64,000 nt of DNA. Source: Clostridia bacterium (GTDB lineage: Bacteria; Bacillota; Clostridia; DUPQ01). Location of the stretch: assembly GCA_016935835.1 (NCBI GenBank), contig JAFGQE010000024.1, forward strand, positions 12,338 to 76,337, given 5' to 3'. Shown here piece after piece: positions 25,313 to 61,396 of the stretch. The translations under genes and the position numbers were made by a program. The first letter of the stretch is position 1, and every line of letters begins with the position of its first letter. Under the pieces are notes generated by a model, which saw only the letters and a program-made list of their open reading frames with translations, had not been told where the DNA came from and made no database searches.

Positions 25313-25367
25313 GATTTATTCTCCTTTTTGAACTCCGCCCTGCATTCGTCTTCTATAAAAAAGCAGC

Positions 25368-27746: not shown

Positions 27747-27931
27747 TGTTACTGTTCCACCTTTATCGATTTATTATACATAAGCTGGGGTTCATTTTCA
27801 AATCCTCTTTTTATTATCTGGTTATATACCCTGTTAATATTATATGGTATTATTAAGCAAGTCCCCGGAGATTTATTCAATTCGGCAGGATTAATCCGGA
27901 AATGATTATTCTATTGTCTGGAGGTTATGAA

Positions 27932-28504: not shown

Positions 28505-28529
28505 TACATAAACAATGGTATCCGGCGCT

Positions 28530-31018: not shown

Positions 31019-31030
31019 TTGTATCTCCCG

Positions 31031-31825: not shown

Positions 31826-31843
31826 CTTTGCTCCTTTGCCATC

Positions 31844-37468: not shown

Positions 37469-37945
37469 ATGAAAAAAACAAAAATTCTGACATTGGCATC
37501 CATACTGTTGATTATATTCGCTCTTGCGGCATGCTCAAAAGCTGTTGAAGCACCATCCGAAGGAACAATCTTATCCCCGGAGCCCTCTTCTTCACCATCT
37601 TCCACCCAGGGTGAATCACCGGATGCGTCCGTCTCCGCTCCTCCGACGGCGGTTGACGGCAGCGGGTCTCCATCGGATTCAGAAAACGCAAATGTTCCCG
37701 CCGACTATGGAGAAACAGTCTTTACCCTGGCCGAGCTTGCCAGATATGACGGAACCAACGGAATGCCTGCATACATTGCAGTGGACGGGGTTGTTTACGA
37801 TGTGTCAAATGTGAGCGCATGGCGAAACGGAAGGCACAATGGATTTACGGCAGGCAAGGATCTTACCGAGGAGATAAAAAACATATCTCCCCATGGTACA
37901 AGCACCCTTTCCGGGCTGCCAGTGGCAGGCACTCTTTCCGAATAA
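37469..37945 (+). CDS. lipoprotein with a low-complexity Ser/Pro linker and a C-terminal cytochrome-b5-like heme/steroid-binding domain
   Basis: Signal peptide with lipobox 'LAAC'. The C-terminal 'LAELARYDGTNGMPAYIAVDGVVYDVS' resembles the cytochrome-b5 / PGRMC (progesterone receptor membrane component) fold. Confidence 0.55.
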   Translation: MKKTKILTLASILLIIFALAACSKAVEAPSEGTILSPEPSSSPSSTQGESPDASVSAPPTAVDGSGSPSDSENANVPADYGETVFTLAELARYDGTNGMPAYIAVDGVVYDVSNVSAWRNGRHNGFTAGKDLTEEIKNISPHGTSTLSGLPVAGTLSE

Positions 37946-37981
37946 CTGCGAAAAACGGCGGTTCGCCGATTGGCATAATAT

Positions 37982-38012
37982 GTGCCGGGTATTTTTGCCC
38001 GGCACATTTTCA
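37982..38012 (+). terminator. rho-independent terminator after the lipoprotein gene
   Basis: GTGCCGGG-tatttttg-CCCGGCAC followed by ATTTTCATCTTT. Confidence 0.6.
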
Positions 38013-39074
38013 TCTTTGTCTTTGGCCGAGTTTTTTGCAGGAATCGAAATACTGTTCAATGTTTTCCAGGGGAATGTTGTGGGGAAGATCGCCTGCGGCG
38101 CGTATGAAGTAACCCGGATACTTTTTGCCAAGGTCCATGCAACGGCCCACTTCCCTGCGCACATCCTCCCTTGTTCCGCAGGTAAGTATGCGCGAATCCA
38201 CATTGCCGCATATCACCTTTGATTTTCCATATTTTTCAAGAACCGGTCCAAGATCAACGTAATTGTCAACGATCAGTCCGTCGACGCCGACCGCGAACAG
38301 GTCGTCTATCAATTCGGTATAGTTGCCGTCCGATACAAAAATGAGTTTTTTCCCGGCTTTCCTGATGGGTTCAAATATTCTTTCATATCCGGGGAATATG
38401 TTATCCCTGTACCATTCCTTCGGGAAGACAAGCCCCCTGGTCAGGGCCAGGTCGTCGTGGCAGAATATGACCTCGGAGCCCGAGACAACCCATTCCTTTA
38501 TATTCCTTACGGAAAATTCAGTGAACAGCTCAATTTTCCTCCTGAACCTTTCAGGCTCGGTTCGTGCGGTTACAAGAAACATTTCCCATCCAAAGGCCAT
38601 TATGAAACATTGGAACAACGTGGTATAGTACAATCCCGTAACCAATGCCGAATCCCCTGCCAGCCTTGATCCCCTTATACATTCATCGAGGCGGTTTTTA
38701 CGGTATTCCTCCGAAACTATCCTTACTCTTCCCGTGTTGTCCTCCAATGGATTGTATTCAAGGATCTCATCCTCGTCCCTGAAGACCCCGTCCTCCTCCC
38801 ACTGGCTTCCCGTAAAGCCCCATTCGGTATAATGCACCCCATCCTCTATTCGCGAAGATTCCCCGGCGGAAAACTTATGTGATTTTTCCGGAATCGCCAC
38901 ATACCAGTCGATGTCAAGCTTTTTAATCAGCTCAATGATGGCTTTTTCCGGTTGTTCGAAAGGATCCAGCCCGGTTGTCTTCCTGATGAATTCAGGATGG
39001 TCCACCCATTCCTGGGCCGGAACCCGGTCTGTCGTTTCGAGGTTCATGGCCTTGACCGCGCGTTCTCTTGACAT
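38010..39074 (-). CDS. URO-D-like (uroporphyrinogen decarboxylase family) protein, function unknown
   Basis: About 354 aa. The N-terminal 'SRERAVKAMNLETTDRVP' is typical of URO-D/MtaA-like TIM barrels. RBS GGAGGT. Confidence 0.55.
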   Translation of the reverse strand: MSRERAVKAMNLETTDRVPAQEWVDHPEFIRKTTGLDPFEQPEKAIIELIKKLDIDWYVAIPEKSHKFSAGESSRIEDGVHYTEWGFTGSQWEEDGVFRDEDEILEYNPLEDNTGRVRIVSEEYRKNRLDECIRGSRLAGDSALVTGLYYTTLFQCFIMAFGWEMFLVTARTEPERFRRKIELFTEFSVRNIKEWVVSGSEVIFCHDDLALTRGLVFPKEWYRDNIFPGYERIFEPIRKAGKKLIFVSDGNYTELIDDLFAVGVDGLIVDNYVDLGPVLEKYGKSKVICGNVDSRILTCGTREDVRREVGRCMDLGKKYPGYFIRAAGDLPHNIPLENIEQYFDSCKKLGQRQR

Positions 39075-39179
39075 TTGGTACCTCCGCAAAAATATGGTTC
39101 ACTAACAAATTATAACATGCGGGCATGCGCATATTGAAGGATAAGCAAATAAAAAAGGCGGGCACACCCGCCGTTTTAA

Positions 39180-40142
39180 TTATTCGCTTTTTATATCGTC
39201 AAGGAATATTTCGCCGCCCCCCTGGCGTCGGCTTTTTATTCCTCCCGCTATTATTTTCATGCATTCTACCGTTTCACTGAAATCAAACGGAGCCTCGCCC
39301 GTCCTCAGGTAAGATATAAATGCCTCCAACTGCGCCCTGAAAGAATGATATGTGCCGCCGGATTCAGCGAATTCAAACGATTTGTCCCCGGCAAACATGG
39401 CTTTCCCAAACGACCCGAACATATCGTATATGGCGGCTATCACTATGTCCGCACCGCACGAATGCTTGAGGTGAACAATGTTCCTCTTCTCGTCCCCGGT
39501 GTTCCGCACGGATATGAAGCCGGGTCCCAGAATGGGATATATACCTTCAAGTGCATGTATTCCATATCTTTCCCAGGTCTTTGGGGTGGTTATCGTAACG
39601 TATTTCAGTTTGCCCAGATGATCGGCGGACCTTCTCAGCTTCTCAAAACCGGGGCTGTATCTCATTGAGCTTGATGACATGAATTTCCCGCCTTCCCTAT
39701 GCCACTTGACAAAGGTCCGAAGGTCTTCCTCATTGTCGCACATGGGTTTGTCAATGAAAACCGGAATTCCCGCCTCGATGAAAGGCCTTGCTCTGTCGAC
39801 ATGCTCCCATCCCCTGTCCGTTGCTATTATTACCGCGTCAACTTTTCCGATTACATCCTCCGCCCGGGCAACCGGATTAGGTATGAGCGATGCCGCGGCG
39901 ACTTTTTGCGTATCCTCCGGATCGTCGCACCACACATGCGTTACATTCACATCTGGAATTCTGAGGGTTTCCTTCGGTTGCTCACCCAGATAGTCCGGTA
40001 TTGTCGGATATGGGCAAAGAGCCATTTTCCCTTCATCGTATCCATTGCAAATCGCGCTCCATGAATACGGATGCCCGTTGCCGTCAACCATTCCCAGCAT
40101 AGCCAGGTTGATTTGCCTTTTATTCACTATTGGTTTTGCCAT
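39180..40142 (-). CDS. Gfo/Idh/MocA-family oxidoreductase (atypical)
   Basis: 320 aa with an N-terminal Rossmann fold 'LAMLGMV..' and a C-terminal alpha/beta domain. RBS GGAGG. Confidence 0.55.
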   Translation of the reverse strand: MAKPIVNKRQINLAMLGMVDGNGHPYSWSAICNGYDEGKMALCPYPTIPDYLGEQPKETLRIPDVNVTHVWCDDPEDTQKVAAASLIPNPVARAEDVIGKVDAVIIATDRGWEHVDRARPFIEAGIPVFIDKPMCDNEEDLRTFVKWHREGGKFMSSSSMRYSPGFEKLRRSADHLGKLKYVTITTPKTWERYGIHALEGIYPILGPGFISVRNTGDEKRNIVHLKHSCGADIVIAAIYDMFGSFGKAMFAGDKSFEFAESGGTYHSFRAQLEAFISYLRTGEAPFDFSETVECMKIIAGGIKSRRQGGGEIFLDDIKSE

Positions 40143-40160
40143 CTGCCTGCCTCCGTAATC

Positions 40161-40946
40161 TTATTTCGCGGTCAGTCCGCCGTCAACCGGGATGTTTGCT
40201 CCCGTTATGTACGAAGATGCATCTGAAGCAAGGAAAACAATGATTCCCATCATGTCCGTATCATTCGCCATGCGCTTCAAGAACGTCTTGTCAATATAGT
40301 TCTCCTTGAAATCAGCGGGTGTGGCCGGTGTTTCATATCCCCCCGGATGAATGCAGTTGAACCTTACCTTCGAGGAGCCATAGTATCCCGCGAAAAACCT
40401 TGTCGCGTTGGCCATTCCCCCTTTATTGTAATAATATGCGGCTCCCCCGGTTTTCTGCAGGCCCGTTCCCTCATACAACCAGTTGTCATAGCCTACCAGG
40501 CCATATATGGATCCGATATTTATGACAGAGCCTCCGCCGGAATCCGCCATTGCCTTTGCGAATTCCCTGCACATCAATATCAGGCCGGTTGCATTTACAT
40601 TGAAATCCTCATCAAGTTTTTCAGCCGTCAGATCATCAATGTGGCCGGACCTCGCGACTGAATTATTCACCAGAACATCTATTTTCCCGTCCTGTCTTAG
40701 TATGTCGTCCAACAGCCCCTTGATTGAATCCTCATCGCCCTGGTCATATGCGATTGGAAACACATCAAGGCCTTCCTCTTTTAAAGCCCCGGCAAATTCA
40801 GCAAGCTTATCCAGATTCCTGGAAGCCATATATGTCTTCGCCCCCGCCTGTGCAAGGGCCCTTACCATCTGGCGCCCGTACAGTCCGGACCCTCCCGTGA
40901 CCAACGCAACCTTTCCCTTCAAACTGAAACTGTCCAATATGTTCAT
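40161..40946 (-). CDS. SDR-family oxidoreductase
   Basis: 'ALVTGGSGLYG' cofactor motif and a 'YGSSK' catalytic YxxxK. Confidence 0.75.
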   Translation of the reverse strand: MNILDSFSLKGKVALVTGGSGLYGRQMVRALAQAGAKTYMASRNLDKLAEFAGALKEEGLDVFPIAYDQGDEDSIKGLLDDILRQDGKIDVLVNNSVARSGHIDDLTAEKLDEDFNVNATGLILMCREFAKAMADSGGGSVINIGSIYGLVGYDNWLYEGTGLQKTGGAAYYYNKGGMANATRFFAGYYGSSKVRFNCIHPGGYETPATPADFKENYIDKTFLKRMANDTDMMGIIVFLASDASSYITGANIPVDGGLTAK

Positions 40947-40950
40947 AACA

Positions 40951-41871
40951 TCATCCTTTCACCTTGTCCCAGAGCCATGGATAGAAAAGCCAGTCAGGCG
41001 CACCCCTCAGCCCCTCCCTTACCTCCTCCATCCTGGCCTCATCAAGCGAAGATTCCCCGACCATCCGGGCGTTTTCCAAAACCTGCCGGGGGTTGTCCGC
41101 ACCTATTACCAGCGACGTCACATATTCAAGGCTGTTCACATAGCCGATTGCCAGCCGGGCCGCAGACATCCCGTATCCGGATGCCAGTTCCCGGATTTTC
41201 ACAATATAGCCGCCGATTTGCGATAGATTACCCTTCAATTCCCCCGGTTCCATGAAAAACAGTCCCTGAAGATAGATGCTTCTGGCAAAAACCGTCCTTC
41301 CCCAAAGCCTTTCCTTCATTTTTGAATCTGAATTCCTTTGGTCGAGCATATTGACCGGCATCTGGAAGGCATCATACATGCTGTTTTCCAGAAGCGGCTC
41401 TATTTCCTGCAGCGAGTAACCCGATGCACCGGCTTTTTTTATCATTCCAAGATCCTTCAATTTTCTTATCGATGAATCTATCTGTACTTTGTATTTTAAA
41501 TATTCCTTCGCATCATGCATAAGGATGAAATCAACATAATCAGTCTTCAGATTCACAAGCGACTTTTCAACCGATTCAATCAGTACATGCTGCGCCTCAT
41601 CCTCCTTGACGTCGCCAAGCTTGAATTTGGTTGAGATGAAAATCGAACCCCTTGAAATGCCGTTGCCCTTCAAATACTCTCCGATGACTTTTTCAGAATC
41701 GCCGTATGCGGCGGCCGTGTCAAGGCAATTGACCCCGCATTCAAGCGCTTTGTCCAAAATGGAAAACGCCTTTTTTAAATCCGGCTTTCCCTCTTTGTTT
41801 GCAATCCCGTAGTCAAGGCCAAGCTGTACCGTGCCGAGCGTCATTCGGGATATAACCTTGGAATCCATCAT
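40951..41871 (-). CDS. aldo/keto reductase
   Basis: 'LGTVQLGLDYG', 'DTAAAYGDSE' and 'ISTK' AKR signatures. Confidence 0.75.
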   Translation of the reverse strand: MMDSKVISRMTLGTVQLGLDYGIANKEGKPDLKKAFSILDKALECGVNCLDTAAAYGDSEKVIGEYLKGNGISRGSIFISTKFKLGDVKEDEAQHVLIESVEKSLVNLKTDYVDFILMHDAKEYLKYKVQIDSSIRKLKDLGMIKKAGASGYSLQEIEPLLENSMYDAFQMPVNMLDQRNSDSKMKERLWGRTVFARSIYLQGLFFMEPGELKGNLSQIGGYIVKIRELASGYGMSAARLAIGYVNSLEYVTSLVIGADNPRQVLENARMVGESSLDEARMEEVREGLRGAPDWLFYPWLWDKVKG

Positions 41872-42743
41872 ATCTCTCCTGTTTCCTTCATGCATTCATA
41901 TACCTTCCGCCTGACGCTCTCCCCGGCCGGCGCATGATAATCCGGCTGATACTCGCCCGGCATCCCCAGAAGTTCCATTGCATGGGAATAAGCGGAAAAA
42001 ACCGACCCCCTTACAAACTCGTCCCTCAACCTCACTATGTTGGCCAGATGAACCGAAACCCCCGGATAATCCCCGTTCCTTGCGCACAGGTACATGCTTT
42101 TCGTGTTTTTGGGCATGCAGGTGAACATTCCGTCAAGGTTCTTTGCCAATCCGTTTTGAATCGCCTTGTCAAAAACGTCAAGCCCACTGAAAAGCACCTC
42201 GAAACCTTTTCTGAACCTGTTTTCATCCATGAATGACTTAAGGAGATCATAATTCGCCGATTTTATTCCCGCGATGTTTTCATTCCCGGCCAAAGCTCCC
42301 AGCGAAATGGCATCCAGCGGCGATTGCGTCACCGACGGGAGGTCATAGACATACACCGGGTAGTATGATTCAGAAGCCAGCTTTTCAAAGAAGCTTATTA
42401 TTTGTTCAGGGGAAGATTTATAATAGTAAGGCGTAGTGGCCACCACTCCTTCTATTTCAATATCACCAAGGGCGTATATCCTGTCCATTACCCTGGAAAC
42501 CGAGTTGTCCATGACCCCCACCATAACCGGCACTCTTCCGGCTGCGGCGTTGACGCAGGCTTCGGCGATGTCCGGGTAATCCTGGTCGCGTATGGAAACC
42601 ATGTTCCCCATGGACCCCATGCACAAAAGTCCCGAGGCGCCTGCATCAATCATTTTTTCTATCTGCATCCCGAAGCTTGCTCTCTCCAGGCTTCCTTCCC
42701 GGTCCAGGGGAGTTCCAAGCGCCGGGAAAAATCCATCCTTCAT
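41868..42743 (-). CDS. DapA-family (dihydrodipicolinate synthase / N-acetylneuraminate lyase-like) class I aldolase
   Basis: 'FPALGTPLDREGSL' N-terminus and a Schiff-base Lys region 'GIKSANYD'. Confidence 0.65.
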   Translation of the reverse strand: MKDGFFPALGTPLDREGSLERASFGMQIEKMIDAGASGLLCMGSMGNMVSIRDQDYPDIAEACVNAAAGRVPVMVGVMDNSVSRVMDRIYALGDIEIEGVVATTPYYYKSSPEQIISFFEKLASESYYPVYVYDLPSVTQSPLDAISLGALAGNENIAGIKSANYDLLKSFMDENRFRKGFEVLFSGLDVFDKAIQNGLAKNLDGMFTCMPKNTKSMYLCARNGDYPGVSVHLANIVRLRDEFVRGSVFSAYSHAMELLGMPGEYQPDYHAPAGESVRRKVYECMKETGEI

Positions 42744-42744
42744 T

Positions 42745-43788
42745 TTAAAACCTCTCATATCTTTCTTCAGACGAGGTCCTGTACGCTGATTGTATTACTC
42801 TCTGAACCTGCACCGCATCCTCAGCCGGAACCTCTATATCCGTTTTGTTGATTATTGAATTGGAAAAAGACTCAATTTCCTTGGTATACATATTGCCGAA
42901 TTCGACTTTTACATCAATGGGCTCGACCCGGTTCCTGTCCTGTGCGGCATCATACCCGAGCGTGTCGTCGGATAGCATGACCTCAAGCTTTCCGCCCTCC
43001 GCCTGGCTGATGGTCCCCTCCGCAAGCATGCTGCCTTTTGTCCCGTAGATCTCAAGCCGCCCCCTTGCCGCGGCGTCGGGTATGTTGAAATTTGCCTCTA
43101 TGTGGCACAGGGCCCCGTTCTCAAGTTCGACAAGCAATGCCCCGCTGTCCTCCACCTCATAACCAAATGTCAGTGTTTTAGCCATTCCCGCGGCTCTTTT
43201 CGCCCTGGACCCGGTTATATGCTGTATAAGGTCAAGGCAATGAACGCCCATGTCCATCAATGCGCCTCCGCCGGAAGATGCGAACGATTGCCTCCAGCTT
43301 CCGGGAATATCGGGATACCAGCATGTCAGCTGAGCCCTGCAGGAAACTATCTGGCCCAGTTTTCCTTCCTCAACAAGCCTCTTCATCGCCACGTGGTATG
43401 CATGAAAGCGCATCATGAAGCCCGTTGCAAGAAGAACGCCTTTCCTTTTGCAGTACTCTATTACTTCCTGGCCTTCCCCGACCGTAAGCGCTATGGGTTT
43501 TTCCAGCAATATATGTTTCCCGTAATCAGCCGCCATCATCGCCTGCTCCTTGTGAAACACAACCGGAGATGCTATATAAACGGCTTCCGTCCCTGGGTCC
43601 GACAGAAGGTCCCTTGCATTCGTGAAAGCTTTGTCCGCCCCGTACTTTGCCCTGAGATTTTCCGAAACATCCGGGTCTATCTCCATGACAGAGCGTATGC
43701 GCGCATTCCCTGCAAGCATCATGCCCGGCATTGTCCTTCTGTCCGCGATGCCTCCCGCGCCCAAAACACCCCAATTAACCTTTCTCAT
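42745..43788 (-). CDS. Gfo/Idh/MocA-family NAD(P)-dependent oxidoreductase
   Basis: 'VNWGVLGAGGIA' Rossmann fold, 'EKP' motif and a C-terminal dimerisation domain. RBS AAGGAG. Confidence 0.7.
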   Translation of the reverse strand: MRKVNWGVLGAGGIADRRTMPGMMLAGNARIRSVMEIDPDVSENLRAKYGADKAFTNARDLLSDPGTEAVYIASPVVFHKEQAMMAADYGKHILLEKPIALTVGEGQEVIEYCKRKGVLLATGFMMRFHAYHVAMKRLVEEGKLGQIVSCRAQLTCWYPDIPGSWRQSFASSGGGALMDMGVHCLDLIQHITGSRAKRAAGMAKTLTFGYEVEDSGALLVELENGALCHIEANFNIPDAAARGRLEIYGTKGSMLAEGTISQAEGGKLEVMLSDDTLGYDAAQDRNRVEPIDVKVEFGNMYTKEIESFSNSIINKTDIEVPAEDAVQVQRVIQSAYRTSSEERYERF

Positions 43789-44869
43789 CGGTTATTCTCC
43801 TTCCGCCTGATATGACTTCATAAACATTTGCTTCCTCATCCATTATTACAATATCCGCTTTTTTACCCGGTTTTATACTTCCGGTCTTACTATCTATGCC
43901 AAGAAGCCTCGCCGGATTCAGCGAGCCCATCCTTACCGCTCCGGACCAGCCTATTCCAGTGTGCCTTTTCATGTTTGCAACAGCCCTGCCTACGCTAAGC
44001 AATGATCCGGAGAGTTCCCCGGCTTCATTGTAATTCAGGTCTCCTTCGACGCCCGCTTCCGGCGTCGATACCGCGTCGGAAATAAGGATCAGCCTGTCGC
44101 CCATGATTTTATATGCAATAACAAGCAGCTCCCGCGGAACATGCACTCCGTTGGAGTCAGCTATTATCTCTGCATAAAGATTGCCGTCCGCAAGCACTGC
44201 CTCCGCTGTTCCATTTTCATGTATCGCCGCACATTCCCTGCTTTTTGGTCCCATTGCGTCAAACAGGTGGCATACCAGCCTGATTCCTCCCAGTTTGTCC
44301 GCCTTGCATCCGGTATGTCCCGCGCATGGGATTATCTCTTCCTTAGAAGCGAGGAATGCCTTGAATTCGTCCGCTCCTTCGAGCTCGGGAGAAAATGTCC
44401 AGATTCTTATCCTTCCCTTGCCCGCACTGTAAATATCTTCATATATGCCCTGTTCAATGTCGCTGGCATATCTTGTGTCTGCACCATATTCCTGATTGAT
44501 GAACGGGCCTTCGCAGTTGATGCCCAGGATTTCATTTTCCTCCATGGATGCAATCCCGGAAACAGCCAAAAGGAATTCCGGCATTGTCATGTTGTAACCG
44601 ATGGTGGGAAGAATGCCCAGCGTTCCCCTGGTCCTGTGAGCCCGAAGCGCAACCCCGGGATCCTGTGAGAACAGCCTGCCTCCTCCCCCATGGCAATGTA
44701 TGTCGATGAATCCCGGGACTACAAGCCTTCCCTCCGCATCGATGCTTTCTTCCGGCATAAAAGCGGGAAATCCCGGGGCCATTTCGGCAATGATTCCGTT
44801 TTCAATGCCAATGAAGCCATCGAATATTTCATTTTCCGCCACTATCCTGCCATTTACGACATACAGCAT
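43775..44869 (-). CDS. nagA: N-acetylglucosamine-6-phosphate deacetylase
   Basis: 'PGFIDIHCHGGGG' amidohydrolase metal site, and NagA family features throughout. Confidence 0.8.
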   Translation of the reverse strand: MLYVVNGRIVAENEIFDGFIGIENGIIAEMAPGFPAFMPEESIDAEGRLVVPGFIDIHCHGGGGRLFSQDPGVALRAHRTRGTLGILPTIGYNMTMPEFLLAVSGIASMEENEILGINCEGPFINQEYGADTRYASDIEQGIYEDIYSAGKGRIRIWTFSPELEGADEFKAFLASKEEIIPCAGHTGCKADKLGGIRLVCHLFDAMGPKSRECAAIHENGTAEAVLADGNLYAEIIADSNGVHVPRELLVIAYKIMGDRLILISDAVSTPEAGVEGDLNYNEAGELSGSLLSVGRAVANMKRHTGIGWSGAVRMGSLNPARLLGIDSKTGSIKPGKKADIVIMDEEANVYEVISGGRRITDEKG

Positions 44870-44885
44870 GAGTCAACCTGTCCCC

Positions 44886-45836
44886 TCAATTGCAATCCGC
44901 TTCGAGAGGCCCGGCAAGTTCCTTCAGGAAGAATAGCTTTCCCGGAAGGGTTGGCATAAACGAAGAAGGAACCCACATATCGGGACCATATCTAAGGGTC
45001 ATCCACAGCGACATGCCCTGCCATTGCATTCCCCTGCCCAGCGCACCGTCGCAACCGCCTATGATCTTGTCGGATTTCAGGAACAATCCGGGTCCGACGG
45101 TGTTCGCCCTGCACGGCACGAGGGTCGTCCTGCTTTTGAAACTGGTTATGGCATTTTGTTCTATTGTAAGAGGATGCAAAAGGGCCCCGGTTCTGTGAGT
45201 TTGTTTCTTCCATTCGTCAACCGATGAAAACTCTCCTGCAAATTGTGGTTCCCAGAATGCTATGTGGCACATCCTGCCGATACCGAATACGGTTACAAGC
45301 CGGGCTCCCTCTTCCTTCAGTGCCGCTATTTTACCGACATATGTCGGGAGGTTTTCTTTCGTTGCAAAATTCCTTTGTCCGGGCGGAACCGTCAGTTCTC
45401 CCAGCGGACCATAGAAAGCCTGTTCCATGGCATTCTGAAAAGACCCGGGATCATCCGGCGCAAGGGTGTTCCCATCCCCGTCGCTCCACTCGTCCATGTT
45501 GAATCCATGAACATGCGCGGCGCCAGTTCCCCATTCCTTCAGAAAGTAAACGGCCCATCGGTACATCCCCATCGGACCCACCGGAAGAATCATTGCGAGC
45601 TTTCTTTTTTCATCCGCTGTCTTCCTGATCTCCATCGCTATTTCATGGCCCATCATCATGTCGAAGTCATTAATGTTGCCACACTCCACCGGAATGAAAT
45701 CCCTGTTCCAGAATGGCTGTCTTTTCAATATGTCCCCGGGTGAATTTGAACAGCACCCATCGATTTTACCAAAGTCCCATCCGGCGGGATAAAAGCCTTC
45801 GAGCAGGGACCCTTTTATTGTGTCCATAAAGTTCAT
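44886..45836 (-). CDS. nagB: glucosamine-6-phosphate deaminase/isomerase (NagB family)
   Basis: NagB/6-phosphogluconolactonase fold with 'ILPVGPMG' and 'HIAFWEP'. The likely start is the ATG at 45836 (MNFMDT), which has an RBS GAAAGGA. Confidence 0.65.
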
Positions 45837-45875
45837 AATGATCATCCTTTCAGTCTTTGCCTTCTTTTCGGCGTT

Positions 45876-46583
45876 CTACGGAAGCAGTCTTTCGGTCGAC
45901 TGCCGCGGCCATGTCCTGCAAAAGCGGAATCCCTCGGCATACTCCACTCCGCACTGAAGTCCCCTGAATTTTGAAACAGTCCTCACAAAATCAAGGAAAT
46001 CAATGCCGTCGTGGTCCCTCATCCACTTGACCTGGCTTTCATGTTTTTCAAGCGCCTTCAGCTTTGTTTGCAGTGTTTCCGTTATGTCGACATATTCCTC
46101 GGGAAGAAATCCCACGCCGGCCAGGGTATCCATATAATATATAGGGACTATTTTGCCAAAAGCCCCTCCGTTGGCGCCATAATGCGGAACACTTGATGAA
46201 AATGATGCGTCGAACACCATCCTTCCGGTCTCGACATGGTCCTTCATATAGTCTTCAGGCGAATGGGTTATGATCAGATCCGGCCTGACATCACGTATTA
46301 CCTCAATTAACTTTTTGACCGTGCCCTCATCCCGCGAATCCACTGTGAGGTCGGGAACATCAATGTTGAAAACCCGGCCGGCACCCAGGATTCTTCCGGA
46401 TTCCTCCGCCTCCGCGGTTCTGATCTCCCTCAGTTCCTCCGGCATGATCACGGCATGCCCCATGTTGCCGTTGGCAACATGGCACGTGAACACATCATGT
46501 TTTTTCAGCGCGAACTTTGCAAGCGTTCCCCCGCAGCCTATCTCAAGGTCGTCGGGATGGCATCCCACAGCTAAAACTCTCAT
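45876..46583 (-). CDS. PIG-L/LmbE-family N-acetylglucosaminyl deacetylase
   Basis: 'LAVGCHPDDLEIGCGGT' zinc-binding motif. Confidence 0.75.
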   Translation of the reverse strand: MRVLAVGCHPDDLEIGCGGTLAKFALKKHDVFTCHVANGNMGHAVIMPEELREIRTAEAEESGRILGAGRVFNIDVPDLTVDSRDEGTVKKLIEVIRDVRPDLIITHSPEDYMKDHVETGRMVFDASFSSSVPHYGANGGAFGKIVPIYYMDTLAGVGFLPEEYVDITETLQTKLKALEKHESQVKWMRDHDGIDFLDFVRTVSKFRGLQCGVEYAEGFRFCRTWPRQSTERLLP

Positions 46584-46593
46584 TTCATCCCCT

Positions 46594-47865
46594 CTACTTT
46601 ATATGCTTTCTGCAAACTTCCAGAAAAGCATCTATGCATCTCTTTATATGCTCGTCCTCCCAGCTTGGATGCAGGAACAGGCTCACCGTCCTCGACCTCA
46701 GGGAGTTTGCCATCGGACAGAAGACCTCATCATATCTTACGCTCTTTTTATCCGTGTATTCCCTTGACTTGAACGGAAACTTGTGCGCGCCGAATCCATT
46801 GTGCTCCCTGTAGGCTCTTTCGCGATAGGCTTCGGGCCATTGTATCCCGTAGCAGGGTATTCCCATATCGTGCAGTTCCTTGGTGAATTCCACCGCATCT
46901 ATATCCAGGACATCCGTATTAAGCACTATCGGGTACCACCAGTATGCATTCCTTCTCTCATCAGTGTTCACCGGGAGCTTGCCTATGCCCCTTTGGTTCC
47001 GAAACGCCTCATCGTACATACCCGCATACCTGTATCTTCTTGCCAGATTCCATTTATCCAATCTTTTCAGCTCATTGATTCCTATGATGGACTGTATTTC
47101 AGTCATCCTGTAATTAAATCCCACACGGTTGTGTATGTACGGCAGCTTCTCCTCAAGCGCAAGCATGTTCATCCTTTCCCTGACATCGTATCCATGGTCC
47201 CTGAATGAACGGAATTCCCATGCAAGGTCCTCGTCGTTTGTAACAACCATTCCTCCTTCGCCGCCCGTCGTGAAGTGCTTGCTCTGGCAGAAGCTGAAGC
47301 ATCCCGCATCACCGATCACCCCTGCCTTGACGCCCTTGAATTCGCCCCCGAAGCACTGCGCGCAGTCCTCAATGACCTTCAGTTTGTGCTTTTTGGCTAG
47401 GTACAATATCGGCGCCATGTCCGCCATGACACCGTAAAGATGCACGACTACTATTCCTTTGGTCCTGCGGGTTATAAGGTCTTCTATTCCATCGGGGTCT
47501 ATCGTATGGTCTTCCGTCACATCGCAGAAAACAGGTATGGCCCCCGCCTGCACGATTGCAAAGGATGATGCTATGAATGAATATGACGGAACTATAACTT
47601 CATCCCCCGGCCCGATGCCAAGTCCCGCCAGCGCTATATGAAGGGCCGCCGTTCCATTGGTACATGACACCGCGTATTTCGCGCCGTTCCATTCAGCCCA
47701 TTTTTTCTCAAACTCCATGCCTTTTTGACCCGTCCAGTAGTTCACCTTTCCGCTTTTCAAGGGTTCCTGGATGTCTGCCAGTGTTTCCGGTGCAAACTGC
47801 GGCCACATCGGGAATCCCAGGTCTTTTATCCCCGCGCCGTTCATTACCTTTTTTTCTTCTTCCAT
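46594..47865 (-). CDS. DegT/DnrJ/EryC1/StrS-family PLP-dependent (amino)sugar aminotransferase
   Basis: 423 aa with a 'SFCQSKHFTTGGEGG' PLP-lysine motif. RBS GGGAGG. Confidence 0.75.
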   Translation of the reverse strand: MEEEKKVMNGAGIKDLGFPMWPQFAPETLADIQEPLKSGKVNYWTGQKGMEFEKKWAEWNGAKYAVSCTNGTAALHIALAGLGIGPGDEVIVPSYSFIASSFAIVQAGAIPVFCDVTEDHTIDPDGIEDLITRRTKGIVVVHLYGVMADMAPILYLAKKHKLKVIEDCAQCFGGEFKGVKAGVIGDAGCFSFCQSKHFTTGGEGGMVVTNDEDLAWEFRSFRDHGYDVRERMNMLALEEKLPYIHNRVGFNYRMTEIQSIIGINELKRLDKWNLARRYRYAGMYDEAFRNQRGIGKLPVNTDERRNAYWWYPIVLNTDVLDIDAVEFTKELHDMGIPCYGIQWPEAYRERAYREHNGFGAHKFPFKSREYTDKKSVRYDEVFCPMANSLRSRTVSLFLHPSWEDEHIKRCIDAFLEVCRKHIK

Positions 47866-47886
47866 TTGAATCTACCTCCCGATTTT

Positions 47887-48321
47887 TTATTTCTTTGTTA
47901 CCGTTGCACTGCATCTGGCCATGCCGGTCATGCTAAGGTCCATCGAGTACTCATAGCCAAGCGGTTCAAGCACCCTGCTGTATATCGCCGGGCAATGCCC
48001 GCAGTATTCTTCATAGGGTTCCATGTAATCCAATTCGATCAACATGGCTTTTGACGGGCACTTATGCATTTCTATGCGAAACTCGTTTTTCCCCTCATCA
48101 AGAGTCATCCTGAAATCCGCGGCTTCTTCATTCAGGGCTTTCTCCCAATACATGAAGCATCCCCTAATGCCATGTTCCGACACAAGCTTCCTCAGGCTGT
48201 CCCTTAGATAATTATCTGATAAATAATCCCAGAAACGCCCGACCTCGGCCCGGCCGCCTTTTTTTTCAATGAAGCGAAACCCCTCGCTGTAGGCTGGTAT
48301 GAATTCGGTGCATGATATCAT
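47887..48321 (-). CDS. hypothetical Cys-containing protein, paralog A (about 144 aa)
   Basis: The ATG at 48321 has an RBS AGGAGG 8 nt upstream. Conserved 'HKCP...YCGHCP...C' positions are shared with the upstream paralog. Confidence 0.5.
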   Translation of the reverse strand: MISCTEFIPAYSEGFRFIEKKGGRAEVGRFWDYLSDNYLRDSLRKLVSEHGIRGCFMYWEKALNEEAADFRMTLDEGKNEFRIEMHKCPSKAMLIELDYMEPYEEYCGHCPAIYSRVLEPLGYEYSMDLSMTGMARCSATVTKK

Positions 48322-48783
48322 GGCATGTTCCTCCTGAAAAACCTCTGTCTGCATGCGCCTTTTTCATCGTCAAAGTATTCCAGCCTGTATTCATACGGAG
48401 TCCCCGCGCACATAGCTTCATATACGGTTCCATATGTCTCGCGGTACTGTTTTATTGGTTCAAGGCCGGCTTTCCTGATATGCGAAATGCCCGGGCACGA
48501 CTCCTGTGTTATAACAAGTTCTTTATCTTCCATCAATATTTCAACGGGCCATTCCTCCTTCTTGTAAATCTCCCTGAAGTATGACTCCAGTGAAGCAAGG
48601 TCGTCTGCAATCAGAAACTCTTTTCTGGGGGCGTGAAACGCCGAGGAGAATTCAACAAGGTATTCAATAAGCGCATTCTCGCCGAAAACCGAGCAAATAT
48701 AATCCATAAGCATATTCATCGATATGTGGAAGTCCCGGTGCAGATATTTGTTATCGGAAGCTTTTCTCTCAATAACTTTCATT
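48318..48783 (-). CDS. hypothetical Cys-containing protein, paralog B (about 155 aa)
   Basis: 'ESCPGISHIRKAG...MCAGTPYEY...GACRQRF' aligns with paralog A. ATG at 48783. Confidence 0.5.
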
Positions 48784-50121
48784 TTGCAATTCCTTTTTAT
48801 TTGCCAGTGGTCTAAGGATCTTGCCGTCGACCATCTCCACGAGAATATCGCCGGCGTTATATACAAGCTGGCTCGACCATGCCGTCCTTACTTCATATCC
48901 CCCTTGTAAAAAAGCTTCTTCCTTCGGGATATATCCCGACTGGCTGTTGGCAAGTCCGATTACCATCGTATATTCAAATGCCGATCTTTTCTTTACTTCC
49001 AGACCGAACTCAACATAAACTTCCCCGGGGAAAGTTACAAATGCAAATTCACCTACAGCCATACCCTGCATCACGGTCTCGAACTCTTTGTCCGGCCTTT
49101 CGAGCATTCCCTTTATCATCTTTGCATAGGTCTTGTCGGGTATTCCGTCGAACATGTCCTCCACTTTGTCCCTGTCCCTTTCGAGAACCATGTCGGCCCA
49201 TTCCCTTTCCTGTAGTGTTATTTCGCGAAGCGGTATTGCGACGGTCTTGGATTCATATGATACCGGGCCTTCGATTGGATGTGATAATTCGATGCATTCC
49301 TTAGAATGACGGCCAAGCTTACGCCCTATTCGCCTGGTCTCCCGAAAATCCCTCCATTGATTTGTTTTTTTGAAATTCAGGTGGTTTATATTGCCTTCGG
49401 CGCCGTTTGCAAAAAGCACGACGGCATCCCTTCCATATGAATCCAGCAGATATTCGTCAAGATAGTGTATGAAATCCCTTGATATGAGCCATTTGTAGCC
49501 GACAAGAATGGCCGGGTGAAGGGTGAAGTTAACCAGACATGCAAGCAGTTCACCCGTCTTTTTCCAAACGGAAAGAACAAGAAGCTCCGGGTCTGTCGGC
49601 CCGGTCGCCCCGACAATGTCTTCAGCTTCAAATTCCTCAAAATTCATGACCACCGTGCCGTCCTTTTTGACAAGCCGCCTGTTGAAACTAAGGTCACTGA
49701 TTTCCTTCCGGCCTATCCTCAGGTCCGCCTCTATATACCTTTTATGTATTTCCCCGGCTCCATCCGCAACTTTGACTGCCGTTTCACCCAAATATTCGCC
49801 GATGATTTCATCTATCCCATGGTACATCCGCATGCACGTGTCCGGCCCCGAATGCGTGTGTGTTCCCCAGATCGTTATATTCGAAGCCGCAATCCCGGTT
49901 GATTTGGAAACCTTCTTCCTGATGTCGTTGCAAGTTTCGTATTTGAGTCCGACGAAATCAAATCCCATCAGGCACACTTCGGTCTTTCCATCATCAAGCA
50001 TCAGTATATTGCAGAACAAATCGTCATGAACTCCCCTGGATTTATTGTCAATCCTTACGTTTCCACCCATCGGGATGCCGTTCCCGGGCGTTATCTTAAC
50101 TCTTCCGGCTGCTGCTTTCAT
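48769..50121 (-). CDS. neutral/alkaline ceramidase-family hydrolase
   Basis: 'GRVKITP' N-terminus and the 'IWGTHTHSGP' zinc-site motif of the neutral ceramidase N-terminal domain. RBS AGGAGA. Confidence 0.65.
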   Translation of the reverse strand: MKAAAGRVKITPGNGIPMGGNVRIDNKSRGVHDDLFCNILMLDDGKTEVCLMGFDFVGLKYETCNDIRKKVSKSTGIAASNITIWGTHTHSGPDTCMRMYHGIDEIIGEYLGETAVKVADGAGEIHKRYIEADLRIGRKEISDLSFNRRLVKKDGTVVMNFEEFEAEDIVGATGPTDPELLVLSVWKKTGELLACLVNFTLHPAILVGYKWLISRDFIHYLDEYLLDSYGRDAVVLFANGAEGNINHLNFKKTNQWRDFRETRRIGRKLGRHSKECIELSHPIEGPVSYESKTVAIPLREITLQEREWADMVLERDRDKVEDMFDGIPDKTYAKMIKGMLERPDKEFETVMQGMAVGEFAFVTFPGEVYVEFGLEVKKRSAFEYTMVIGLANSQSGYIPKEEAFLQGGYEVRTAWSSQLVYNAGDILVEMVDGKILRPLANKKELQNESY

Positions 50122-50129
50122 CTCGTCTC

Positions 50130-51326
50130 CTAAAATATTTTATTGAATATATATCTCGCCCCGCCTGCTGTAACAGGGTTCCCTTCGAATTCCGACATAA
50201 TGATCTTTGTTCTGCGATTTCTGTCAAGGCCTATCCTTCTCTGAACTTCCACAACCTTCTTCAAAAACCCGCTGCCCATGGCGGTTATTTTGCCCCCTAT
50301 TACAACAGCCCCCGGGTTAATCAGGTTGATGGCGTTATTGATTCCGTACGCTATATATTCCGCCGTCTTGTCAATTTGCCCGGAATACCTTTTTTTGCCG
50401 ATGTATTCCATTGCGATTATCCTCAGCTTCTCATCTTCCGTCCTTGTCTCCGGATGTTCTTTTAAAAAATCCGTTTCGCTTTCAATGTTTGCCACAAGGG
50501 CGGGGATGCTTGCAAGAATTTCAAGGCAGCCCCTGCTCCCGCATTTGCACACGGGCCCGTTGAGGTCGATCGATATGTGCCCGAACTCACCCGCAAGCTC
50601 ACCAGAGCCTTCATATATGCTTCCGTTTATTATTATTCCGGCTCCTATACCGGCATGAATGTCAATGTAAAGCAGATTGTCCGTATGTCTTCCGATTGCC
50701 CCGTACTGCGATTCCGCGTAAGCACATAAACCGGATTCGTTCATTATTTCCACCGTAACATCCGGAAAAGCTTTTTTCAATTTTTCATAAAACAGGTTTG
50801 ATGTTTCCAGTGGTATTATGGTGGAAGACACCACCCTCCCCTTCTTTCTGTCGATTATACCGGGCGCACCGACGCATATGCCAAGCAATCGATCGACTCC
50901 ATAACCGCATTTTTCAAGAAGAATCGCCGTATTTTCAACTATTGACGAACCCAGCGCTTCATAATCTTTCAATGGTATGAACACCTCGTCCAGTGATTGG
51001 CATTTCAAATTGAAGATTCCAAGATAATACCCGTTCTTTTGAAGGTCAGCCGCTATTATTGCCCCTCCGCCGGGATTGACTTCCAGCATAATGGGTTTTC
51101 TTCCGCTTGTTGCCAATTCACCAGCCCCGGTCTCGATTACCAGGCCCGATGAAATCAATCCGTCCGCAAGAGTTGACACAGTAGTGGGGCTCAATCCTGT
51201 ACTGGCTGCTATCCCTGCCCTTGAAATCCCTTCGTTAATGCAAATCAATGCAAAGATACGCCTCATATTGGCTTCTTTTATAAGCTGCTGGCTTGATGTC
51301 TTTTTAGGTCCGACGTCAGTAAACAA
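50130..51326 (-). CDS. ROK-family transcriptional regulator (NagC/XylR-like)
   Basis: N-terminal HTH ('QQLIKEANMRRIFALI...ISRAGIA') followed by a ROK sugar-kinase-like domain with a 'CKCGSRGCLE' zinc motif. TTG start with an RBS GGAG. Confidence 0.75.
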   Translation of the reverse strand: MFTDVGPKKTSSQQLIKEANMRRIFALICINEGISRAGIAASTGLSPTTVSTLADGLISSGLVIETGAGELATSGRKPIMLEVNPGGGAIIAADLQKNGYYLGIFNLKCQSLDEVFIPLKDYEALGSSIVENTAILLEKCGYGVDRLLGICVGAPGIIDRKKGRVVSSTIIPLETSNLFYEKLKKAFPDVTVEIMNESGLCAYAESQYGAIGRHTDNLLYIDIHAGIGAGIIINGSIYEGSGELAGEFGHISIDLNGPVCKCGSRGCLEILASIPALVANIESETDFLKEHPETRTEDEKLRIIAMEYIGKKRYSGQIDKTAEYIAYGINNAINLINPGAVVIGGKITAMGSGFLKKVVEVQRRIGLDRNRRTKIIMSEFEGNPVTAGGARYIFNKIF

Positions 51327-51529
51327 TTAATTTCTCCAGTGGCTTTATTAATTGTATGTTATCACTGTTTCATCAGGGCGTCAACCGCTCCCGCCGCACA
51401 TTCCTTTTGTTTTTCCATGCTCGCACCGTCAGCTGAATGCAACCGCATGCGGTTCGCCTATCCCGGCCTTTCAAGAACCGGTACAGGCGGATATATTGGT
51501 TTGTTTTATCCCGTCGACGGCAACCCGGA

Positions 51530-52792
51530 TCACCACATCCTGTCGATGAGTTCCCTTACTATCTTCACGGCCTTGCCTGCTTTTTTAAAATCATCGGTAA
51601 GAGTGTATACATCCCTGAATATAATCTCCATATGGCATCCTTTGCCTGCCTTCAATGTCCTTTCGATATGCTTTCTGAAGGCTTCCTCGTCGAAGCTGCC
51701 GACTCCAAGGAAATTCGGACTGGGTTTCCTTGAATATATGACGTTGCCGCCCCTTAAAGCCTCTCCCATGAGTTCTTCATTACACCAGGGTGAGATTGAT
51801 ACTTTTCTAAGATTTTTCAACTTGCTTACGCATGTTTCCCATATTTCGTGGACCGGCTCGCAGCAACCGTAATAAACAAGCCCGAACCTTTCGGCGGCTT
51901 TTCTAAAAATAGGAAATACAAACTCCTCATACATCGAAGGGGATAATCCAACGCTTTCCTGGGAATTCATGTTTCCCCAGATGTCCCTTGTGGTAATCCT
52001 TCCCGTTTTTTTATAATCCTCGGATGGAAGTTCATCGGTAAACCCGTAACTGCCCGCCCCCGCCCTGATATTCCCGTTGTCCAGTGCAAGCAGTCCGTTC
52101 TGTTCCTGCCAGTCCATGTATTCGAAGGAATCCTCGAGTATGAAGTCAAAAAGCTCCCTTGTCTCGTCGGGGTAGTCCATTATTGAATACATAAGGGTCT
52201 CAAGCCCCATCATATTGACCGCCCTGGCTGTAAACGACATGAACCAAAGCAAAGAATTGTTCACAAGCTGTATTTTCAGAATATCGCCAAGCAGATCCTG
52301 CATGAATTCAAAATGGCTTTGAGTCCCCTTGGCGTCATAATTGTAAACGGATTTTTTAAGCATCCCGAAATCCCTTGCCAGGTCCTTGATCGGATGTTCG
52401 CTGCTGTATCCCAGGTTCCTGCCCTTGGAATCAGCCGCCCGGTGAATTACCCTGTCGGCATCAAGCTCCCTCATATTGATTCTCATCCCGACGGGGAAAA
52501 AATCAGGAACCACCTTGTCGTCATCCACCAGTTCATGGCTGCTTATATTTGACAAGAGCTCATTCTCAACCGCAACCGCTGCCTCGGAAACACAAAACCT
52601 TTCCGGAAACAGCTCCTCCCGGAATGGCCCGGTCTCGACGACGACCATCGGTTTTTCACCCCTCAGACCGTTGTTGTCATACCAGTTCTTTCTTCGCGCC
52701 TCCATTACGGGGAGCCTTGAAATATCCAGTTGCTTCTTCGCCAGATCCCTTAGATATTCTTTTTCTTTTTTTAGTATAAAATAATCAGCCAT
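51530..52792 (-). CDS. hypothetical TIM-barrel protein, possibly URO-D/methyltransferase-like; first gene of the long minus-strand locus
   Basis: 420 aa with an RBS GGAG. I cannot assign a family with confidence. Confidence 0.4.
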   Translation of the reverse strand: MADYFILKKEKEYLRDLAKKQLDISRLPVMEARRKNWYDNNGLRGEKPMVVVETGPFREELFPERFCVSEAAVAVENELLSNISSHELVDDDKVVPDFFPVGMRINMRELDADRVIHRAADSKGRNLGYSSEHPIKDLARDFGMLKKSVYNYDAKGTQSHFEFMQDLLGDILKIQLVNNSLLWFMSFTARAVNMMGLETLMYSIMDYPDETRELFDFILEDSFEYMDWQEQNGLLALDNGNIRAGAGSYGFTDELPSEDYKKTGRITTRDIWGNMNSQESVGLSPSMYEEFVFPIFRKAAERFGLVYYGCCEPVHEIWETCVSKLKNLRKVSISPWCNEELMGEALRGGNVIYSRKPSPNFLGVGSFDEEAFRKHIERTLKAGKGCHMEIIFRDVYTLTDDFKKAGKAVKIVRELIDRMW

Positions 52793-52942
52793 ATTACACT
52801 CCGTTTGTTTTTTTCATTATACTATATGTGAATTTGGTTTGACATACACCGCTTCCTTGCAACAAAAATTATACCGTATTTGAAATTATCAATTCCATGC
52901 AATATACTGTAAGAGGATAATAATTATTAAAGGAGATGCCTT

Positions 52943-53401: not shown

Positions 53402-53425
53402 AATCAGCAATCAAGGAGATGAACA

Positions 53426-61256: not shown

Positions 61257-61396
61257 AGTAACCTCCGCATGTTCTCATTCTACCACATTGACCCGCCTGC
61301 GCATTTGTTCACATTATGTTTTTGGGATCCCGACCCTTGCCGCCGCCTGTTTTTCATGTTACTGTTCTTTCAAAGTATACTATTCCGGAGGAACAG

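Follow-up and report, generated by a model that had tools for sequence, protein, structure and literature searches.

Several described systems resemble parts of the gene cluster reported here. The sialic acid loci of Bacteroidetes (nanL, an AGE-type NanE, the MFS transporter NanT, a sialidase and an esterase) and the nanATEK and nagBA genes of Escherichia coli serve the catabolism of N-acetylated sugars, the E. coli route passing through an N-acetyl deacetylase and then a NagB-fold deaminase. Neutral/alkaline ceramidases have been solved from Pseudomonas aeruginosa (2zws) and human (4wgk). The dehydrogenase, aminotransferase and N-acetyltransferase trios WbpB/WbpE/WbpD, PseB/PseC/PseH and GnnA/GnnB are biosynthetic, a fused "glucosamine-6-phosphate deaminase-like protein" is modelled by NF002557, and the V4R/Bet3/H-NOX/BcsD proteins include the sensor domains of PoxR and DmpR and the Bet3-Tpc6 heterodimer of TRAPP. 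The cluster lies on the minus strand of a 64,000-nucleotide stretch of DNA (the window; contig JAFGQE010000024.1, positions 12,338 to 76,337) from a Clostridia metagenome-assembled genome (MAG), where the listing of open reading frames (ORFs) agrees with an earlier note on this DNA in giving 15 consecutive, co-directional genes from 52792 down to 38010. From here on these are called g1 to g15, in the direction of transcription.

All parts of the cluster belong to known superfamilies, and it is a variant of an amino-sugar catabolic operon. On balance, g2 to g14, with g1 and g15 associated, probably encode a ROK-regulated, cytoplasmic and non-phosphorylative catabolism of a small N-acylated amino sugar or sugar acid with more than one nitrogen function. 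The earlier note had proposed a route for an N-acylated amino-sugar compound that had not been described as a unit, and this fits the evidence. Full-text searches of the literature found no description of the cluster, of the partnership of a ceramidase-like amidase with Bet3-fold proteins, or of a phosphate-independent pair of PIG-L and NagB-like proteins.

Like the nan and nag systems, the cluster has an aldolase of the DHDPS/NAL family, a ROK-family protein, and an N-acetyl deacetylase followed by a NagB-fold deaminase, and its core module sits within one Bacteroidetes sialic acid locus. Unlike them, it lacks NanK, NanE and the canonical NanA signature, its NagA- and NagB-like proteins are without phosphate sites, and it adds a putative amidase complex, a DegT transaminase and four oxidoreductases. 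The amidase g3 shares the N-terminal catalytic fold and the zinc motifs THTHSGP, xHP and NxGxxN with the ceramidases 2zws and 4wgk, but it is around 200 residues shorter, has no C-terminal domain, is predicted to be cytoplasmic, scores only 40-50 bits, and is partnered with or fused to Bet3/V4R-fold proteins in a sugar-metabolic gene context. Like the biosynthetic trios, the cluster combines the Gfo/Idh/MocA and DegT superfamilies for what would be the same chemistry at one sugar carbon; unlike them, it apparently runs in reverse, with a deacylase replacing the acyltransferase in a catabolic context, and would act on free rather than nucleotide-linked sugars. The proteins g7 and g8 match separate parts of the NF002557 fusion and are an obligate pair in many genomes, but here they are separate genes within a much larger pathway. 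Finally, g4 and g5 have no detectable sequence similarity to V4R/Bet3 proteins, carry a conserved Cys/His pattern of their own, and go with an amidase where the known proteins go with a regulator or a trafficking complex.

Family assignments were checked against Pfam and NCBIfam. Nearly all of those made in the earlier note hold, but its canonical NagA and NagB do not: both proteins fall below the equivalog cut-offs and lack the phosphate-binding residues. As every NCBIfam equivalog score for the proteins of the locus falls far below its curated cut-off, none of them is an orthologue of a named enzyme.

Conservation of the cluster across phyla

The 15 window proteins were compared by tblastn with 85 fetched loci (given as L numbers where they need to be told apart), together with clustering of ORFs and gene tables. 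The order of g2 to g14 is held in around 10 Clostridia MAGs at 45-90% identity, and runs ROK regulator, amidase, sA (g4), sB (g5), DegT, PIG-L, g8, NagA-like, Gfo (g10), in some cases a GNAT acetyltransferase, DHDPS-family aldolase, aldo-keto reductase (AKR), short-chain dehydrogenase/reductase (SDR) and a second Gfo-like gene (Gfo2, g14). The ROK gene heads the block in 20 Firmicute loci. A core of g3, g4, g5, g6, g7, g8, g11 and g12 recurs in Bacteroidales, Rikenellaceae and Prolixibacteraceae, where it takes the form of an amidase::sA fusion, sB, DegT, PIG-L, sometimes g8, DHDPS and AKR, and sits beside SusC/SusD, AraC, and MFS, APC or SSF transporters. It is often divergent from a unit of URO-D-like, HpcH aldolase, Gfo2 and SDR genes, and genes of the sialidase superfamily (BNR_2) neighbour it. 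A SusC/SusD pair lies next to the homologous core in L003 and L005; the window, from a Clostridia MAG, has no such pair. In Lentisphaeria, Acetothermia and Clostridiaceae, DegT and Gfo still accompany distant amidase homologues.

Given this synteny across phyla, the gene arrangement is far beyond chance. The order is kept in relatives, as expected of the conserved, co-directional amino-sugar catabolic unit that had been proposed, and the scattering of genes in close relatives that would have undermined a single unit is not seen, the genes staying together there. Homologues number 618 for the g3 amidase, about 1900 for sB and 6873 for g8. Carriers of the amidase family are MAGs from sediment, digesters and groundwater, and with 618 matches the family is common in anaerobic environmental MAGs, contrary to the earlier view that a neutral ceramidase is unusual in an anaerobic Firmicute.

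Identity across phyla is 74-88% for DegT and 79-85% for g8, against 44-75% for the amidase. In comparisons of the window with L003, L016, L017 and L087, identity between Clostridia and Bacteroidota is about 80% for DegT and g8 but 40-65% for the genes around them, which suggests either very strong constraint or a recent transfer of these two genes across phyla.

Several variants of the cluster were also seen. Between Gfo and DHDPS, a 364-residue GNAT acetyltransferase (Pfam Acetyltransf_1/7/9; "Eis-like" in our own reading) is encoded in L006, L019, L020 and L021, which belong to one Clostridia sub-lineage; upstream of the cluster in L006 and L020 are an Opp-type ABC transporter, an unusually long SBP_bac_5 protein of about 830 residues and an M32 carboxypeptidase. 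A very distant version is found on a high-GC chromosome of 7.9 Mb (OW818658.1, L084), where tblastn detects the amidase at 27%, an sA-like protein at 28%, Gfo2 at 55% and a NagA-like protein; its remaining genes were read by eye as GntR, a class III aminotransferase replacing DegT, and an FGGY-type kinase. The association of amidase and sA appears to be ancient, with a kinase added in some lineages. An amidase of 40-43% identity lies within another conserved cluster, mostly in cultured Firmicutes (L033, L034, L036, L037 and L038: Aneurinibacillus, Ammoniphilus, Paenibacillus naphthalenovorans, a Paenibacillaceae MAG and Bacillus sp.). By eye, its other genes are SDR, M20-like deacylase, RidA-like, D-Ser-dehydratase-like, aldose-epimerase-like, RraA-like aldolase and ROK genes and a sugar ABC transporter. 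These Firmicutes are tractable hosts for the amidase family.

A truncated, putative ceramidase-fold amidase and its proposed partner proteins

The protein encoded by g3 (48769..50121), of 450 residues, matches PF04734 (Ceramidase_alk) at 40.4 bits (cut-off 32.1) over residues 13-216, corresponding to model positions 14-217 of 509. The profile of its family matches the P. aeruginosa ceramidase 2zws with an E value of 1.7e-12, in an alignment that pairs the THTHSGP, LHP and NGAEGN motifs. Three motifs, THTHSGPD, LHPA and NGAEGNxNH, do not vary within the family and correspond in the alignment to the zinc-ligand and catalytic motifs of ceramidases; H88, H90, H202, E367 and Y409 are among the invariant residues. 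The solved ceramidases have 646 and 688 residues, and it is the N-terminal half alone that aligns; no second Pfam domain and no C-terminal ceramidase domain was found in g3. By inspection, neither its N-terminus MKAAAGRVKITP nor that of the fused forms contains a signal peptide or transmembrane segment. By these criteria g3 is a truncated, distant relative of neutral ceramidases, predicted to be a cytoplasmic zinc amidase. An exact-sequence look-up of g3 gave no match.

The two genes that follow, g4 (sA, 48318..48782, 154 residues) and g5 (sB, 47887..48321, 144 residues), encode small proteins. In Bacteroidota the amidase carries a homologue of g4 as a C-terminal fusion, which fixes the start of g4 at MKVIERK; the true start of g5 is at MISCTEF, with an ATGA overlap onto g4. 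Conserved residues are H15, D17, H19, C96 and C125 in g4, and a Cys/His cluster of C4, C55, C88, C107, H109, C110 and C137 in g5. The earlier note called the two proteins paralogues. Pairwise BLAST finds no significant sequence similarity between them (E 0.22), but they share one predicted fold, the Bet3/V4R/H-NOX ligand-binding fold, and on these models they are structural paralogues. This type of fold is able to heterodimerise, and from the fusion and the predicted folds we infer that amidase, sA and sB form a complex. On a Ratteibacteria contig (L091, 9537-11519) an sA and sB pair occurs with no ceramidase-like gene; it adjoins a creatininase-family amidohydrolase on the opposite strand, with BNR_2 and Amidohydro_2 genes near, which suggests that the pair can serve other amidases.

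The earlier note had suggested a pathway for host glycosphingolipids, in which g3 would be a true ceramidase releasing sphingosine and a fatty acid. The PF04734 match above cut-off is consistent with this, as is the Bet3 fold of g4 and g5, one family member of which binds an acyl chain, and the sialidase-like neighbours in Bacteroidota could suit gangliosides. This explanation is nevertheless very improbable. At 450 residues against the ~650-690 of ceramidases, g3 is truncated, it has neither the C-terminal domain nor a signal peptide or membrane anchor, and the neighbouring genes are for soluble sugar enzymes. The uptake genes found nearby (MFS, APC, SSF and SusCD) are for small, soluble solutes, no lipid- or sphingoid-metabolising enzyme is present in the cluster, and the environmental origin of the carriers also argues against a host lipid.

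Nitrogen-handling enzymes and the loss of phosphate sites

The aminotransferase g6 (46594..47865) belongs to the DegT/DnrJ/EryC1 family of pyridoxal phosphate (PLP) enzymes (PF01041, 311 bits). By inspection it retains the PLP-binding Lys in the motif SKHFTTGGEGG (FCQSKHFTTGGEGG), and a role as a dehydratase was rejected because of this Lys. Its best NCBIfam models, PseC (231 bits) and LegC-family (208 bits), are both below cut-off. Among PDB entries, 7l7x, which we take to be a UDP-GlcNAc3N-uronate aminotransferase acting at C3, is the best match at 252 bits, followed by perosamine synthases (218 bits) and WbpE (160 bits). The nearest solved relatives thus span C3, C4 and cyclitol substrates.

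Next in order, g7 (45876..46583) is a zinc N-deacetylase of the PIG-L/LmbE family (PF02585, 96 bits; BshB1 model 124 bits, under the cut-off of 182.5), and is always paired with g8 or g6 in the loci compared. The 316-residue g8 (44886..45836) has no Pfam match and scores 34.3 bits against the NagB model TIGR00502 (cut-off 236.9), with an E value of about 0.03 to NagB in the PDB. It is placed in the NagB deaminase/isomerase fold by its FNMDE and GHIAFxEP motifs, which align with NagB. The NagA-like amidohydrolase g9 (43775..44869), found only in Clostridia versions of the cluster, scores 161.9 bits against TIGR00221 (cut-off 225.65).

Residues were compared by aligning the window proteins to NagB, NagA and NanA of E. 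coli K-12. In g8 and its relatives the catalytic D72, H143 and E148 of NagB are kept and D141 is replaced by Met; the phosphate loop is two residues shorter, R172 is replaced by Ala, and, in a C-terminal region where the alignment is less secure, K208 by Gly. In g9 the metal ligands and catalytic Asp are kept (equivalents of E131, H195, H216 and D273, plus the HxH motif), with H143 replaced by Asp. The phosphate-binding R227 of NagA is His in g9 and in all cluster orthologues, and Arg in the canonical NagA of L033. Pfam scans found no kinase or phosphotransferase system (PTS) in the cluster. This absence, together with the lost phosphate-binding residues of g8 and g9, points to unphosphorylated substrates, and the g8/g9 pair appears from its residues to work without phosphate.

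An ordinary GlcNAc or sialic-acid (nag/nan) operon with unrelated passengers would also account for genes of this kind, g9 being nearest to NagA and g2 to NagC, and relatives of g8 being labelled "glucosamine-6-phosphate isomerase" by NCBI. We consider it very unlikely, as all scores are far under the equivalog cut-offs, the phosphate-binding residues are replaced, and kinase, PTS, NanE and a canonical NanA are absent, while the supposed passengers are the most tightly conserved genes.

The proteins g7 and g8 match separate stretches of the single 653-position model NF002557. PIG-L and g8 also turn up together repeatedly in Paenibacillus-type loci, where their partners are AraC, an AP_endonuc_2 TIM barrel resembling xylose isomerase, and either Gfo or PfkB together with Mannitol_dh. 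In Paenibacillus hemerocallicola (L088) and a metagenome contig (L089) PIG-L and a g8 76% identical to the window protein make up a small operon, which looks like a separate, simpler pathway that would deacetylate and deaminate.

Aldolase, oxidoreductases and regulator

The aldolase g11 (41868..42758) is an atypical class I (Schiff-base) member of the DHDPS/NAL family (PF00701, 123 bits), with 48-68 bits to NAL models whose cut-offs are 281-382. It keeps K165, Y137 and Y110, and the Schiff-base K165 and Y137 are conserved in g11 and 20 orthologues. The sugar-binding residues of NAL are not kept: GSTGE has become GSMGN, E192 of the GxDE motif (Asp191-Glu192) is missing, and S208 is replaced by Gly. 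Even in loci without DegT (L005, L022 and L024), g11 adjoins amidase, sA and sB. It is followed in 13 loci by g12 (40951..41895), an AKR (PF00248, 132 bits) that probably reduces an aldehyde product.

Upstream of the aldolase, g10 (42745..43788) has the N- and C-terminal Gfo/Idh/MocA domains of Pfam and is probably a keto-sugar reductase; its best PDB match is 1,5-anhydro-D-fructose reductase (121 bits), and it co-occurs with amidase and DegT even in distant phyla. Downstream, g13 (40161..40946) is an SDR (PF13561 and PF00106) resembling gluconate-5-dehydrogenase and KduD (PRK08213, 188 bits, below cut-off), with 71-77% identity in Clostridia loci. The divergent Gfo/Idh/MocA-like g14 (39180..40142) has a weak match to PF01408 (37 bits), has inositol 2-dehydrogenase as its sole PDB match (E 2e-4), and is paired with SDR, URO-D-like and HpcH genes in Bacteroidales. 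The regulator g2 (50130..51326, with a TTG start) is a ROK-family protein (PF00480, 139 bits) with an N-terminal helix-turn-helix of NagC/Mlc type, a weak MarR_2 match, and 154 bits to the NagC model (cut-off 650).

DegT, Gfo/Idh/MocA and PIG-L proteins are typical of the biosynthesis of aminoglycosides and rare sugars; g6 scores 185-188 bits against 2-deoxy-scyllo-inosose (DOI) and scyllo-inosose aminotransferases in the PDB search, and g10 scores 149 bits against the IolG model. These matches raise the possibility that the genes instead make an aminocyclitol, an aminoglycoside or some unusual surface sugar, or that they form an inosamine-type catabolic variant, but to either we attach little probability. 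The cluster contains no glycosyltransferase, nucleotidyltransferase, cyclase or exporter, and no homologues of IolB, IolC, IolD or IolE were seen; what it has instead are an aldolase, NagA- and NagB-like enzymes and sugar-responsive regulators (ROK, AraC), and its core is embedded in SusCD uptake loci.

Proposed pathway and substrate

The catabolic route proposed for g2 to g14 is drawn from families, residues and synteny. The zinc amidase g3 would remove an N-acyl group with the help of g4 and g5, which are probably a heterodimer binding substrate or metal. The DegT transaminase g6 would then turn the freed amine into a ketone, and the reductase g10 the ketone into an alcohol, so that these three steps would reverse the dehydrogenase, aminotransferase and N-acyltransferase logic by which such sugars are built. 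A 2-N-acetyl group would be removed by PIG-L g7 and/or the NagA-like g9, and the NagB-like g8 would deaminate and isomerise the unphosphorylated amino sugar. The atypical aldolase g11 may then release pyruvate, and AKR, SDR and the second Gfo-like protein (g12 to g14) may handle the aldehyde or keto products. The sugar most likely originates from microbial or host glycans.

The substrate may be of the nonulosonic, sialic-acid-like class (5,7-diacylamido nonulosonates or modified sialic acids), an assignment that we make tentatively. Bacterial nonulosonates are widespread in environmental biomass (PMC8053191). The Bacteroidetes sialic-acid locus L005 has SusCD, three BNR_2 genes, a GDSL esterase, a lyase that is 31% identical to NanA and carries the NAL motifs, an AGE epimerase and an MFS transporter, and a module of amidase::sA, sB, g11 and g12 is inserted in it. 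A BNR_2 gene is found at a distance of 10 kb or less in 6 of 12 non-redundant loci from outside Clostridia; among 45 loci with only distant amidase homologues the figure is 2 (Fisher p = 6e-4). With PseC and LegC as the best NCBIfam models of g6, these findings lean towards a nonulosonate, though to a degree that leaves it doubtful. More specifically, and with still greater reserve, the cluster may be the first catabolic pathway for 5,7-diamino nonulosonic acids of the pseudaminic or legionaminic type, or for a related multiply N-acylated sugar acid. It would be opened by a novel type of heteromeric N-deacylase, made up of a zinc enzyme with the ceramidase fold and two Bet3/V4R-fold subunits, followed by "reverse biosynthesis" (DegT and ketoreductase) and by phosphate-independent NagA/NagB-like enzymes acting on 6-deoxy intermediates. 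That a 9-deoxy nonulosonate would yield 6-deoxy intermediates would explain the missing phosphate sites.

A number of observations weigh against this pathway or its nonulosonate substrate. Neither in the window nor in any other Clostridia locus does the cluster contain or adjoin a transporter, glycosidase or BNR gene. The aldolase g11 is no canonical lyase, as it lacks the NAL signature residues and even the Thr that is usual in GSTGE. A neighbouring BNR protein is only distantly related to solved sialidases (36 bits in the PDB search), and the BNR enrichment is confounded by taxonomy. The regiochemistry of g6 is not fixed, as it scores 116 bits against Helicobacter pylori PseC compared to 252 for 7l7x. 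Since DegT and PIG-L are absent from L005, one substrate may not account for every variant, and L017 carries a GH20 hexosaminidase instead. The MFS transporters of Bacteroidota resemble E. coli NanT only generically and are uninformative on substrate. The roles given to g1, g14, g15 and g4/g5 are guesses.

Some of the same points suit another N-acetylated amino sugar handled by the same logic of deacylation, transamination, reduction and deamination, such as a di-N-acetyl diamino sugar of the bacillosamine type, a 2,3-diacetamido uronic acid, an N-acetyl amino-uronate or aldonate (as from oxidised chitin), or free GlcNAc, ManNAc or GalNAc. This is possible if rather unlikely. The match of g6 to 7l7x and to WbpE, that of g10 to UDP-GlcNAc 3-dehydrogenase models, and the resemblance of the SDR g13 to KduD and mannonate oxidoreductases are consistent with it, as are the hexosaminidase of L017, the pairing of PIG-L and g8 with Mannitol_dh and PfkB in L089, and the Paenibacillaceae-type locus, which by eye links the amidase with M20-like deacylase, RidA-like, D-Ser-dehydratase-like and RraA-like proteins. 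It leaves the recurrent BNR_2 and nanL/AGE neighbourhoods unexplained, however, and the cluster has no recognisable uronate isomerase or dehydratase. Two further routes were considered, one through a cyclic imine of de-N-acetyl-neuraminate for the module of amidase and g11, the other an oxidative glucosaminate route; each is compatible with parts of the data.

Elsewhere in the window, the stretch 23108-29723 (minus strand) encodes a GH92 alpha-mannosidase, an MFS transporter, a TauE-like exporter and an AGE-family (GlcNAc 2-epimerase) protein. Around 9 kb separate the cluster from the AGE and MFS genes, which could act as a pair in the uptake and epimerisation of a sugar of the sialic-acid or mannose type.

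Transcription units and the URO-D-like genes

Most junctions from g1 to g15 are overlaps or gaps of at most 30 nt, with two exceptions. The gap between g1 and the ROK gene g2 is 203 nt and contains a promoter-like site, and g1 has a promoter-like site of its own at 52845-52816. The other gap, of about 105 nt, separates g14 from g15 and contains a clean intrinsic terminator (39172-39151, minus strand), GGCGGGTGTGCCCGCC followed by T6, and 3' of it are the start signals of g15: TTCAAT-18-TATAAT, GGAGG, and the ATG at 39074 that is the real start. The remaining minus-strand terminator-like matches are weak and all inside genes. With a terminator and a promoter ahead of it, g15 is probably its own transcription unit. 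Thus, of the single 15-gene locus described earlier, g2 to g14 stand as one block, while g15 is set apart by the predicted terminator and promoter and g1 by the 203-nt gap; judging from these signals, the locus is probably better split into g1, then g2 to g14, then g15. A bidirectional terminator-like hairpin with a 12-bp stem (37956-38007), directly downstream of g15 and preceding a convergent ORF of 158 residues (37469-37945, plus strand), marks the distal end of the locus. No Rfam families and no tRNAs were detected in scans of the window.

Both outlying genes encode relatives of uroporphyrinogen decarboxylase (URO-D). Alone, the 420-residue g1 (51530..52792) has no Pfam match, a shallow profile of its family reaches only 14.7%, and PDB profile searches returned nothing useful. 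The earlier "URO-D-like" call nevertheless holds through a deep profile of 58 members, which matches a URO-D-like profile with 96.8% probability (hhalign, E 2.5e-10), 27 of the 58 members matching PF01208. The g1 family has 1396 representatives at 50% clustering, and its invariant D92, C310, C311 and K356, with the invariant YYGCCEP motif, look like a metal or catalytic site untypical of uroporphyrinogen decarboxylase. No significant similarity to g15 is found by pairwise BLAST. The URO-D/MtaA-like g15 (38010..39074) scores 88.5 bits against PF01208 and lacks the HxC...C zinc motif of MtaA. Distant URO-D-like genes (22% identity) lie beside the cluster in L018, L041 and L087. A role of the URO-D-like genes in corrinoid O-demethylation was rejected, since the HxC motif is absent and a scan of ORFs within the cluster and in its surroundings turned up no corrinoid protein. 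A third URO-D-like gene (61316-62491, plus strand; PF01208, 67 bits) is head-to-head with a GH29 alpha-L-fucosidase gene (60015-61256, minus strand), so that at least three genes of this type accompany glycan-degrading genes in the MAG.

Only in the nearest relatives is the block accompanied by g1 (adjacent in L001, L007, L011 and L012) and by genes for an M29 peptidase and a zinc-ribbon protein. Upstream of g1 in the window, 52889-54043 encodes two divergent small proteins, of which the one at 53426-54043 (plus strand) has a zinc-ribbon match and the one at 52889-53410 (minus strand) has none, although its L001 counterpart does; an M29 aminopeptidase gene follows at 54153-55262. This arrangement is kept only in the closest relatives and is probably unrelated to the pathway. 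On the other side of the cluster, 29825-33001 (minus strand) encodes an acyl-CoA dehydrogenase, EtfB and an EtfA fused to a ferredoxin domain, arranged as in electron-bifurcating butyryl-CoA dehydrogenase complexes.

Implications

Microbial envelopes and extracellular polymers are rich in rare N-acetylated amino sugars and nonulosonic acids, and full-text searches found no account of how anaerobes recycle these sugars. The cluster is a concrete and widely distributed candidate gene set for recycling such sugars, and in it the ceramidase fold would have a new use, with dedicated partner proteins. If the nonulosonate proposal is true, the cluster supplies a missing route for these bacterial sugars. 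It would also correct the misleading annotations "neutral ceramidase" and "glucosamine-6-phosphate isomerase" in reconstructions from sediment, digester and gut MAGs.

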